Part shown: positions 11,101 to 12,524 of the stretch, one piece after another
Numbering within the stretch: position 1 is the stretch's first letter
Layout of the letters: each line of letters starts with the position of its first letter
Assembly (NCBI GenBank): GCA_041395025.1
Contig: JAWLBH010000001.1
Location: 1,110,001-1,142,000 of the forward strand
Direction: 5' to 3'
Length of the DNA: 32,000 nt
From: Chlamydiales bacterium
GTDB taxonomy: Bacteria; Chlamydiota; Chlamydiia; Chlamydiales; JAAKFR01
Translations under genes and position numbers: made by a program
The notes under the pieces: model-generated
The model's input: the letters and a program-made list of their open reading frames with translations, nothing else
Told to the model about the DNA's origin: nothing
The model's database searches: none

Positions 11101-12246
11101 GTAATTCTTGACATGGGATGTATTTTAGATGATCGGTCGTCTCTAGCCTATGCATTGATTTTAGGAGATATAGAGATTATGCACTTGCTATTTGCGAAAT
11201 TTGAAACATTACCACCATCGGAACAGAATGCTTGGCTTAGATTTGATGAAAAAGGCTATTCTTTGATGAGTCTTGCTGTTACAAACAATAGCAAACTTTT
11301 AAGTGCTCGTGTTGATGTCTGTCGAGAGAAATGGCTTGTTGAAATAATTGAGAATAAATCAGAGGAAGTTGCCTATAACATGTTAACATTCCTGTTGGAG
11401 AAGAATTTTGATCCAAATGTTGGGCAGAATCGCCCTCTTTACTGCGCAGCTGAGTCAAAGTTTGTCACGTGTGTCAAACTTCTATTAGAGCATATGGCAG
11501 AGGCCAATTGTGCTTCGGCAATAAAGGAGAATACCCCCTTACATATGGCCTTGGCAAGCGTTAATGAGATTGAGAATGAAGAGCAGAGGGTTGATGAGAT
11601 AGTTGATTTGCTTTTAGACAAAGTTGATGATCAGCTTTCCAATACAGATGGTCACCTTCCTATCCATTTCGCAGCTAAAAAGGGAGATAGGCGAAATTTT
11701 AAAAAATTATTAGACAAATTTCCTGATAGTATAAATCACGTGGATCAAAGAAATCCTATTGATTTGGCCATTGCTTATGGACATATAGAGCTGGTACAAG
11801 AATTTTGTGATGATCCACTAGAAGAGGATCAGTATTATAAATATTTAGAGGTAGCAATCCTTAATCACTCTTTCTTCATTTTCGAATATTTTTTAGAAAA
11901 AATGAAAGAGCATAAGATCCCTATTGATGCGAATAAGTTGATATTAGTCATGATTACAGAGATCTGGGATCATTCAGAAGAGAATATAGGAAATAACCAC
12001 TACATTGTGTATGCAAAAAAAATATTAGATAATTATCCATATCCTATAAATCAGAACCTTTTGTTAAAGGCAAAAGAAAACAAAAAAGGATTACTTTTTT
12101 TTATTTTATTAGATCATTGTCGTTTTACTTTAAGTTCTAATGAATTTAGTGATCTGAGTAAAAAATTTATTAAAGAATTTCAAGAGAATTCCCCGCCCAC
12201 ACCGATCATTTTTAAACGCAGGAACGATCACCAGCAAGTGAACTAA
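8119..12246 (+). CDS. Giant ankyrin-repeat protein with central F-box-like motif, paralog 2 of 3
   Basis: 1375 aa. It has the N-terminal family domain (RGYFITSKLGERGGIIKRS) and two DMGC+ANK modules (MVDMGCIFSPSS..., VILDMGCILDDRSS...). ANK segments include GATPLHFAAHLHFPLCVKLLLEQPGVKVN, GKTPLHHVF, GNYPLHLALQRGY, RYPIDLAVLLGHTRAV, NTPLHMAL, GHLPIHFAAKKGD and NPIDLAIAYGHIELV. The clearest F-box-like motif is LPVIAWNTIFSYLELKKMRNLRILSKRS. The last 3 codons (gtg aac taa) lie inside direct repeat copy B. Confidence 0.8.
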   Translation: MDNIGSPSDSYKLFRGNSEIASEPFNHKLVRLKNQVNEFFRNERGYFITSKLGERGGIIKRSWRPIENIKLWYYGASLNQEKVDERIDSFLSSFLSMDLQDSEHLSEKLEKIREKIVPQKKNTNKNVSLAEVQESIQSQKSDSNSIKVHKIDLSSLEQLRIRVIQDLLRLKAPRALHTIINESHVERDDKDQIIPEKTFALIREQIAKEGATGGLNTGLNKAIERFLYKKFDKFQSDRKQYLSYLQAMVDMGCIFSPSSDSVIFSAVSIADIELVRILFTQFDKWPTDKQQEWYNWGRRNYLHSDLIHYVFLKNSPESSLFGSSSQRVAMMRQRKSDEAVFEVLKFLLEKGFDVNAKSNTPRYLGATPLHFAAHLHFPLCVKLLLEQPGVKVNGVTAEGKTPLHHVFNFYAEKDERQVNEIVTMLLNRDDLENHCDDQGNYPLHLALQRGYEYKMLLERFPRNANAKNHAGRYPIDLAVLLGHTRAVSTFFTFLDDLRASSSSNNWSDIRGRIENIQSKLDIDKMIYDNYFSWCHLAITFAFSRPESEIEANGFSLYKYFLQTPKVKQVDKILFQKKILASLPALLTKTIESQQEQFRAAAKAVLEEQAIVFCMMILGSLEQSLSSQDPEDQSDIFQKVEDLSLSSQDPEDQSDIFQKVEDLLLDMLEKNFWRVSFYLLSYLYDSKGQIKANTKERINQNLQKYDALCRKYIEKHFLLKEEEVVQLEKQNSSLRSSRSQVELPVIAWNTIFSYLELKKMRNLRILSKRSIIQEAIGSRIGKHLAWFHLGHEFHYKELEKEDLIIRMPEKIEVLTVEGKASLKKLTVQGQKLFNQFEKNPDRFKEISKKRVYQKIGKKQIKDISRKQVYQKIGEKQSLRTLKKVQKLVSQIMITAKQVKDNFIPIPKPIGQTFNKNLQEYPIIIREILEDINFARFLNVNVADESDSISDYLLYLQTQFKSTPNANRALRKVLEKCILSYSRTSILREYQLLKIRVILDMGCILDDRSSLAYALILGDIEIMHLLFAKFETLPPSEQNAWLRFDEKGYSLMSLAVTNNSKLLSARVDVCREKWLVEIIENKSEEVAYNMLTFLLEKNFDPNVGQNRPLYCAAESKFVTCVKLLLEHMAEANCASAIKENTPLHMALASVNEIENEEQRVDEIVDLLLDKVDDQLSNTDGHLPIHFAAKKGDRRNFKKLLDKFPDSINHVDQRNPIDLAIAYGHIELVQEFCDDPLEEDQYYKYLEVAILNHSFFIFEYFLEKMKEHKIPIDANKLILVMITEIWDHSEENIGNNHYIVYAKKILDNYPYPINQNLLLKAKENKKGLLFFILLDHCRFTLSSNEFSDLSKKFIKEFQENSPPTPIIFKRRNDHQQVN
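9985..10104 (+). repeat. Perfect in-frame 2x60 bp tandem duplication in paralog 2 (SLSSQDPEDQSDIFQKVEDL x2)
   Basis: 9985..10044 and 10045..10104 are identical base for base. Confidence 0.97.
10339..10450 (+). other. F-box-like motif of paralog 2
   Basis: ELPVIAWNTIFSYLELKKMRNLRILSKRSIIQEAIG. The LP, IFSYL, L..L and (V/L)SKR positions match the canonical F-box helix pattern. Confidence 0.55.
10651..10744 (+). repeat. Imperfect in-frame 51 bp tandem repeat in paralog 2 (ISKKRVYQKIGKKQIKD / ISRKQVYQKIGEKQ)
   Basis: atctctaagaaacgagtttatcagaaaataggaaaaaaacag... is repeated from 10702 with 4 mismatches over ~43 nt. Confidence 0.85.
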
Positions 12247-12489
12247 GTTGGCATCTTTCTCCTGCGATTTTTTCTTCTGAGCAAAGAAGTTTACCTTTTA
12301 CAGAAACGAATATTCTTGCTGTAGGTTTGCACGGTTGTTTTTATTCCCTTTTTTGGGAGTTTTCTTTTTTATCTTTTTAATTCTTTTACTGTCATGATGA
12401 TAGGTTCTTTATTTTGTTTACTGGGTGCTTTTATCTTGATAAATTATAAAGAAAAAGTAAAGATCCTTTCTAAAAATTTGCCATTATAA
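12238..12489 (+). pseudogene. Remnant of the 3' ~250 nt of the MFS-like gene (non-functional fragment)
   Basis: Near-identical to 3821..4071 but lacks the first ~940 nt of the gene. An extra T (gttttt vs gtttt near 12335) breaks the MFS reading frame. Confidence 0.85.
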
Positions 12490-12524
12490 TTTTTTGGAAT
12501 TATTTATTTTAGAGGGTTTATGGA
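12238..12524. repeat. Direct repeat copy B (duplicate of 3821..4106)
   Basis: See copy A. The left edge overlaps the stop codon of paralog 2. The right edge ends 5 nt into the ORF at 12520. Confidence 0.95.

Follow-up and report, generated by a model that had tools for sequence, protein, structure and literature searches.

Analysis of a 32,000-nucleotide (nt) stretch of the genome of an uncultured Chlamydiales bacterium (contig JAWLBH010000001.1, positions 1,110,001 to 1,142,000; hereafter the window) revealed a near-identical direct repeat, in which the end of an MFS transporter gene and a short leader precede two of three tandem ankyrin-repeat genes, paralogs 1 and 3. We interpret this block, with a probability of roughly 60%, as having been left by a recent illegitimate (short-homology) rearrangement within the chromosome, in which the junction between the MFS gene and paralog 1 was copied onto the boundary between paralogs 2 and 3. 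The window carries, in order, dnaG (1147-2862), the MFS gene, the three ankyrin-repeat genes and a fused glyQS gene on the minus strand (coordinates in Table 1).

A direct repeat joins a transporter gene end to two ankyrin paralogs

The two copies, copy A at the MFS/paralog 1 boundary and copy B between paralogs 2 and 3, span 287 and 288 nt, respectively, at a spacing of 8417/8418 nt, as found by region alignment, an independent repeat search and global alignment. They are 98.6% identical and differ at exactly four internal positions, namely three substitutions (3914G/12331A, 3936G/12354T and 4058G/12476A) and a 1-nt insertion (an additional T at 12338), leaving perfectly identical tracts of 94, 6, 15, 121 and 48 nt. 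The 121-nt tract occurs twice in the window, while its mean count in dinucleotide shuffles (n = 100) was 0, even with up to three mismatches allowed; the near-identical direct repeat is confirmed as real and not a product of chance. Each copy comprises the final 251-252 nt of the MFS gene (stop codon at 4069-4071), a 30-nt spacer that holds the ribosome-binding site (RBS) AGAGGG (4093-4098 in copy A and 12511-12516 in copy B), and the bases ATGGA, with which the coding sequence of the following paralog begins.

Upstream of ATGGA, the copies are 93-100% identical in every 30-nt interval. Past it, the DNA identity of paralogs 1 and 3 falls to 77% over the first 10 codons and to a mean of about 57% over the N-terminal domain (N-domain), and beyond the block the DNA of the paralogs hardly aligns, with only patches of 30-70 nt reaching 72-86%. 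An original prediction, made from the letters of this DNA without database searches, had described the repeat with its three substitutions and one 1-nt indel, its order of MFS tail, 30-nt spacer, AGAGGG and ATGGA, and the collapse of similarity to the level of distant paralogs behind ATGGA; all three descriptions were reproduced here.

Copy A as the functional original and copy B as a decaying fragment

The MFS gene that contains copy A is intact. Its product is 100% identical to the NCBI entry annotated 'MAG: MFS transporter [Chlamydiales bacterium]' (MAG, metagenome-assembled genome), and in an alignment of 12 MFS sequences it is full length relative to its 11 orthologues; the nearest MFS orthologues are only 69-79% identical. 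Within this alignment, the invariant GLRGC and PFLGS motifs, along with the invariant residues R345 and G353, are all present in copy A. In copy B the first ~940 nt of the gene are missing, the invariant Arg345 is replaced by His (12331), a +1 frameshift follows seven bases further on (the T at 12338) and Leu352 is replaced by Phe (12354); the fourth difference falls in the unconserved C-terminal tail of the protein and is not polarisable. All three substitutions in copy B run from G to A or from G to T (P ~0.03 if sites were hit randomly in this block of 30% GC), which is consistent with non-functional DNA decaying under an AT bias. The MFS tails of orthologues in relatives share 70-75% nucleotide identity with copy A, versus the 98.6% of copy B. 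Copy A lies in an intact gene with conserved dnaG-MFS synteny and copy B is truncated and degenerating, and the orthologue comparison shows copy A to be the functional donor and original, and copy B a young, decaying pseudogene fragment. The frameshift and the loss of an invariant Arg also bear out the proposal that the MFS remnant is non-coding junk.

Edges and junctions of the block

Identity begins at 3820/12237, one base to the left of the edge first proposed (3821/12238), and an alignment of both loci found no similarity between the copies upstream of it. Read in the frame of paralog 2, the left edge is CAG CA/A GTG AAC TAA (the slash marking the edge), where the third base of a Gln codon, two further codons and the TAA stop are MFS-derived. 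The block does supply the stop of paralog 2, as had been suggested, although with one base and two codons (GTG AAC) in place of three full codons. Paralog 2 thus appears to end in MFS-derived codons and stop, that is, in a C-terminus of foreign origin.

The right edge coincides with a 9-nt motif, GTTTATGGA, which occurs exactly three times in the window (shuffle mean 0.23), always across a paralog start codon; paralog 2 carries it though it lacks the block. Because GTTTATGGA is common to all three paralog starts, the right edge cannot be placed inside the 9 nt. Identity does end 5 nt into the coding sequence, as originally observed, but this point does not mark the boundary of the event. The true right junction may lie anywhere within GTTTATGGA, which could be either a sequence of the family or junction microhomology, and which is a candidate for the microhomology used at the right junction.

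Junctions of this kind could also be made during assembly, either by the chaining of two strain variants (one with MFS and paralogs 1-2, the other with MFS and paralog 3) or by a chimeric join that produced copy B. The genome is a MAG on the scale of a single contig (1,319,052 nt), seen in one assembly only, and the junction and the repeat are absent from the independent contigs scanned: the leader, the unique left junction and a shared tract, each scanned as an exact pattern, had no match in metagenome or genome contig collections, and scanning genome contigs with the MFS protein found no relative. However, a frameshifted copy B with a mutated invariant Arg does not represent a functional MFS allele, the sequence that its left junction has in common with MFS amounts to a few bases at most, too few for a graph-based mis-join, and consensus quality is high, 95% of the window lying in long open reading frames (ORFs) and the housekeeping genes being intact. 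We consider an artefact unlikely.

The block is younger than the paralogs around it

The three paralogs share an architecture of an orphan N-domain followed by two ankyrin-containing units, and their proteins are 25-37% identical pairwise. The sequence after copy B (paralog 3) and that after copy A (paralog 1) share 26-37% protein identity; as copy B is not followed by a duplicate of paralog 1, this excludes a simple tandem duplication. Given that protein identity between the flanking paralogs reaches only 25-37%, the ~99% identity of the block reflects a recent event and not selection. This had been the original prediction's reading of the near-identity, and it is further supported by the lack of an Rfam match, of excess folding and of anything comparable in relatives. 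The divergence figures show that the event is far younger than the paralogs. An ancient tandem duplication of the MFS tail with a paralog, in which the coding regions diverged very fast while the tail stayed unchanged, is effectively refuted: the paralogs are clearly homologous and adjacent, as such a history would leave them, yet a neutral fragment at 1.4% divergence cannot match the age of genes with 63-75% protein divergence, many indels and ~50% third-position identity. Additional kinship between paralogs 1 and 3 beyond the block was also considered and rejected, as the excess of their third-codon-position identity (0.50, versus 0.41 in the other pairs, over ~105 codons) is not significant.

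A profile search with the N-domain retrieved only four proteins among 1.84 billion representatives, namely the three paralogs and MEZ5315557.1, all of them on the source contig. Each 90%-identity cluster of this family has a single member, and for this reason the genome holds no second near-identical paralog 1 or 2. The fourth family member, MEZ5315557.1 (1710 aa, three ankyrin units), is encoded 20 accessions (~20 genes) upstream, outside the window, and its N-domain is nearest to that of paralog 3 (50% over 68 aa). The fold of the N-domain was not recognised: the AlphaFold model has a pLDDT (predicted local distance difference test) score of 54, and a profile search of the PDB gave nothing below E = 0.8.

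Compared with the chlamydial F-box/ankyrin host-interaction families (Domman et al. 2014), which are defined by ankyrin repeats with an F-box or BTB domain in a tandem array, the ankyrin domains here are strong and the genes stand in tandem, while an F-box is matched only below threshold, in paralog 2 (aa 741-774, 10339-10440; E 0.025, 15 bits, with the cut-off at 20.5), and not at all in the corresponding middle regions of the other paralogs. Several in-frame tandem duplications were observed inside the paralogs, namely a perfect 60 bp x2 (9985-10104) and a 92% identical 51 bp x2 (10643-10744) in paralog 2, and a 24 bp x2 (5025-5072) in paralog 1. Such duplications are signs of recent slippage and show slippage-type rearrangement to be active at the locus, which speaks for a rearrangement origin of the block.

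Searches for a functional element within the block

The identity of the two copies could alternatively be that of a selected cis-regulatory cassette (a promoter, leader or structured RNA) which selection or gene conversion keeps identical and which co-regulates paralogs 1 and 3. Both copies hold, besides the AGAGGG RBS, a perfect TATAAT (4067-4072/12485-12490) 29 nt upstream of the start codon, and folding prediction gives a 13-bp stem that can sequester the RBS. Against this, MFS coding sequence makes up about 250 of the 287 nt and has no reason to be conserved before paralog 3, paralog 2 lacks the block, and paralog 3 is broken (see below). The -35 region is poor, no sigma-70-like site with at least 9 of 12 matches was found on the plus strand of the block, and promoter-like sites in the region number 46, versus 47.3 expected from shuffles. 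Rfam scans gave no match at the gathering threshold in the window and none at E<=1 in 12100-12700, and folding is at shuffle level for both the whole block (z = -0.08) and the leader (z = -0.03/-0.68). A selected cassette is, in our assessment, very improbable. A structured cis-regulatory RNA was specifically rejected, with no Rfam family and folding like that of shuffles; two copies are too few for a covariation analysis. An ancient block under selection, for example such an RNA, had been named at the outset as the finding that would overturn a recent origin; the Rfam and folding results are negative, and relatives have no counterpart of the block.

The original prediction had also proposed that paralog 3 received the 5' regulatory region of paralog 1. 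What the block certainly transfers is the AGAGGG RBS with the 30-nt leader, which paralog 3 accordingly appears to share with paralog 1; no plus-strand promoter-like site of 9 of 12 matches or better was seen in it. The spacer of paralog 2 holds promoter-like sites, one of which (8057-8086) matches 10 of 12 positions.

A terminator-like hairpin with a U-tract was detected in both copies (Table 1). It arises from the codons of I-P-F-L-G-S, is missing in three of five orthologues and was rejected as a conserved feature, being a by-product of these codons and not a selected terminator. In copy B it sits 97 nt past the stop of paralog 2, where it may serve as an incidental terminator for paralog 2 transcripts.

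Mobile elements were considered as well. Inverted repeats within the block amount to short AT-rich pairs, none of them terminal; there are two copies only and no transposase, and a miniature inverted-repeat transposable element or insertion sequence remnant was rejected. Pfam and NCBIfam searches of the 8.4-kb unit between the copies found ankyrin domains only, with no integrase or recombinase (a Phage_int_M match of 17 bits falls below its cut-off of 27). An integrative island with attachment (att) repeats was likewise rejected, as there is no integrase and relatives with other cargo after MFS show no MFS-tail direct repeats. A decayed MFS-tail copy was also sought downstream of paralog 3 and in the paralog 1-2 spacer; alignment scores there equal shuffle means, so that the block does not recur along the array. 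Nothing points to a regulatory function under selection, and we regard the block as the scar of ordinary genome rearrangement and not as a new regulatory element or mechanism.

Origin of the repeat

In the rearrangement that we favour, the copied piece would consist of the last ~252 nt of MFS and the 30-nt leader with its RBS. Two equivalent paths could lead to the present structure. In the first, a double template switch, replication or repair would leave the end of paralog 2, copy 3820-~4100 and re-enter at the GTTTATGGA of paralog 3; in the second, an 8.4-kb tandem duplication would later have collapsed between paralog start sites. The right junction would have formed through the 9-mer carried by all three paralogs, while the left junction would be non-homologous and would have replaced both the former 3' terminus of paralog 2 and the spacer that separated it from paralog 3. 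In every history two novel junctions would have to form, with the end of paralog 2 running into MFS position 3820 and the end of the leader into a paralog start. For a 287-nt copy, donor and product are both present in the genome and nothing further is needed, and we take this intrachromosomal history as the most economical one.

The principal competing explanation, which we regard as possible but doubtful, runs in the opposite direction: an ancestral arrangement of MFS, leader and paralog 3 would have received an 8.4-kb segment with paralogs 1-2, and its 287-nt target would have been duplicated, either by single-crossover (Campbell-type) integration of a circularised fragment sharing the MFS tail or by template switching out and in. 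Flanking direct repeats are the expected product of such an insertion, and the fourth family member ~20 genes away implies that members of this family have moved before. The surroundings also favour it. Nine loci of relatives keep the order mutS-dnaG-(DCC1-like)-MFS-[variable]-glyQS, and the cargo of the gap between MFS and glyQS differs per relative, including a 188-aa orphan (locus L001, 11149-11715), a GNAT acetyltransferase (L007, 4515-5420) and a set of six genes with a gyrB fragment and a eukaryote-like Ser/Thr kinase (L005, 11260-17373), so that the gap behaves as a plasticity zone in this clade. In none of the nine loci examined, however, does the gap hold ankyrin genes, MFS-tail duplicates or an integrase. 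The unit itself has no integrase, transposase or terminal inverted repeats, no near-identical donor of paralogs 1 or 2 remains in the genome, and insertion would need a donor in which the same leader already stood before paralog 1, which merely shifts the problem. Both events, the copying of a leader to paralog 3 and the insertion of the 8.4-kb unit, had been put forward in the original prediction; because no second near-identical paralog 1 or 2 exists in the genome, copying the leader is the more parsimonious of the two.

Four points weigh against a copied leader as we propose it. The same end structure would result if paralogs 1-2 had entered an ancestral MFS-leader-paralog 3 arrangement, and one genome cannot prove the direction; microhomology at the left junction is putative; both junctions come from one assembly; and three of the four differences between the copies adjoin homopolymers and could in principle be consensus errors. 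As regards the last of these, the frameshift of copy B is unlikely to be such an error, because long ORFs cover 95% of the window and 22 long homopolymers sit within intact ORFs.

Paralog 3 is a broken gene

Paralog 3, which the original prediction had treated as one gene, consists of two ORFs in different frames, of 144 and 928 aa, which NCBI annotates as separate CDSs. Homology in the frame of the longer ORF begins at ~12951 (IGESKVFR matching IGDRNIFK) and overlaps the stop of the shorter one, and the equivalent of paralog 1 residues ~150-262, with the MDMGC...SPLLYAAY motif, is missing. Paralog 3 is disrupted by an out-of-frame internal deletion, separate from the repeat event. The copied leader would feed only the 144-aa N-domain stub, unless the downstream ORF reinitiates translation.

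Features of the window and neighbouring genes

The features discussed above are listed in Table 1. A DCC1-like gene lies between dnaG and MFS in the more distant relatives (L001, 9586-9963; L005, 9594-9974); neither the window (2862-2881) nor any of the three closest relatives has it. In the place taken in relatives by a GT2 glycosyltransferase beside glyQS, the window holds a 423-aa hypothetical protein without a Pfam match (MEZ5315582.1, R3E91_05190; 19112-20383). Further downstream, an 811-aa ORF (28922-31357), also without a Pfam match, contains two internal repeats of ~870 nt with an identity of 89-94% (29236-29907 versus 30112-30777); its exact product was not found in the protein collection.

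Table 1. Features of the repeat locus, with positions in the window
Feature	Position	Strand	Basis or remark
Intact MFS transporter gene, MEZ5315576.1	2881..4071	+	Donor of the repeated tail; Pfam MFS_1, 8.2e-21
Repeat copy A	3820..4106	+	Functional MFS 3' end (252 nt), 30-nt spacer with RBS, ATGGA of paralog 1
Ankyrin paralog 1, 1286 aa, MEZ5315577.1	4102..7962	+	Pfam Ank families; orphan N-domain
Ankyrin paralog 2, 1375 aa, MEZ5315578.1	8119..12246	+	Pfam Ank; 156-nt upstream spacer of its own (7963-8118)
Left junction of copy B	12232..12246	+	Paralog 2 end CAG CAA joined to MFS-derived GTG AAC TAA
Repeat copy B	12237..12524	+	Truncated, frameshifted MFS 3' fragment with identical spacer, RBS and ATGGA, between paralogs 2 and 3
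GTTTATGGA 9-mer	4098..4106 (paralog 1), 8115-8123 (paralog 2), 12516-12524 (paralog 3)	+	Ambiguous right junction; possible microhomology
Terminator-like hairpin and U-tract	12343..12360 (copy B), 3925-3942 (copy A)	+	-8.4/-7.7 kcal/mol; z -2.5/-3.0
Paralog 3 N-domain stub, 144 aa, MEZ5315579.1, R3E91_05175	12520..12954	+	Predicted to start from the copied RBS and start codon
Out-of-frame internal deletion junction in paralog 3	12940..12975	+	Homology in the downstream frame from ~12951
Paralog 3 C-terminal ORF, 928 aa, MEZ5315580.1	12975..15761	+	Pfam scan, protein alignment
Fused glyQS	15818..18904	-	Pfam; 60-63% identical to glyQS of relatives; right-hand synteny anchor of the variable gap

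Recombination potential and comparison with known systems

The two longest identical tracts, of 94 and 121 nt, should in principle suffice for RecA-dependent homologous recombination in bacteria, and RecA-mediated deletion or amplification of the 8.4-kb segment with paralogs 1-2 between the two copies, as put forward in the original prediction, is plausible. It is highly improbable, in our judgement, that the repeat acts as a recombination switch, in which a crossover would excise or amplify this segment and bring the next gene under the leader of the MFS operon. If it did, members of the symbiont population would differ heritably in which ankyrin genes the array holds and in how many copies, and the pseudogene tail would be kept because of the homology that it supplies.

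As a scar, the locus gives a clear and datable picture of how an orphan array of eukaryote-like ankyrin genes is still being remodelled in an obligate intracellular bacterium whose genome is small (1.3-Mb contig). The traces are a short-homology junction, transporter-fragment debris, a new stop codon in a neighbouring gene and a decaying paralog. It also holds a caution for annotators, in that identical upstream regions need not imply co-regulation.

Several known systems resemble parts of this arrangement. As with the att repeats of integrative islands, an intact gene end and a displaced gene-end fragment flank host-interaction cargo in a variable region; however, no integrase or recombinase accompanies them, the repeat is far longer than typical att cores, and relatives have no such repeats. 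Expression-site and cassette systems likewise join an identical 5' leader to divergent coding sequences, with identity ending at the start codon, whereas here there are two copies, no dedicated recombinase, one broken gene and a 'conserved 5' region' that is mostly a transporter pseudogene fragment. In the duplication-amplification literature of Roth and Andersson, bacterial duplications are said to form RecA-independently at short-homology join points and to be remodelled later. Our locus shares with these a 3' gene fragment at a novel junction, a short motif (GTTTATGGA) at one junction and direct repeats able to drive deletion or amplification; it differs in that the intervening 8.4 kb is not duplicated, so that a simple tandem duplication does not suffice and either two template switches or the collapse of an earlier duplication would be needed.

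Environmental chlamydiae possess tandem arrays of lineage-specific repeat-protein genes that undergo birth-and-death evolution (Domman et al. 2014, PMC4209131). Like those arrays, the one described here comprises large eukaryote-like repeat proteins in tandem, which are lineage-restricted, moderately diverged and marked by traces of recent duplication. Unlike them, it amounts to four genes in one MAG, with an orphan N-domain and no demonstrable F-box, and the recent change is a rearrangement scar between old paralogs rather than a new gene copy. The locus supports birth-and-death dynamics for ankyrin families of this kind.

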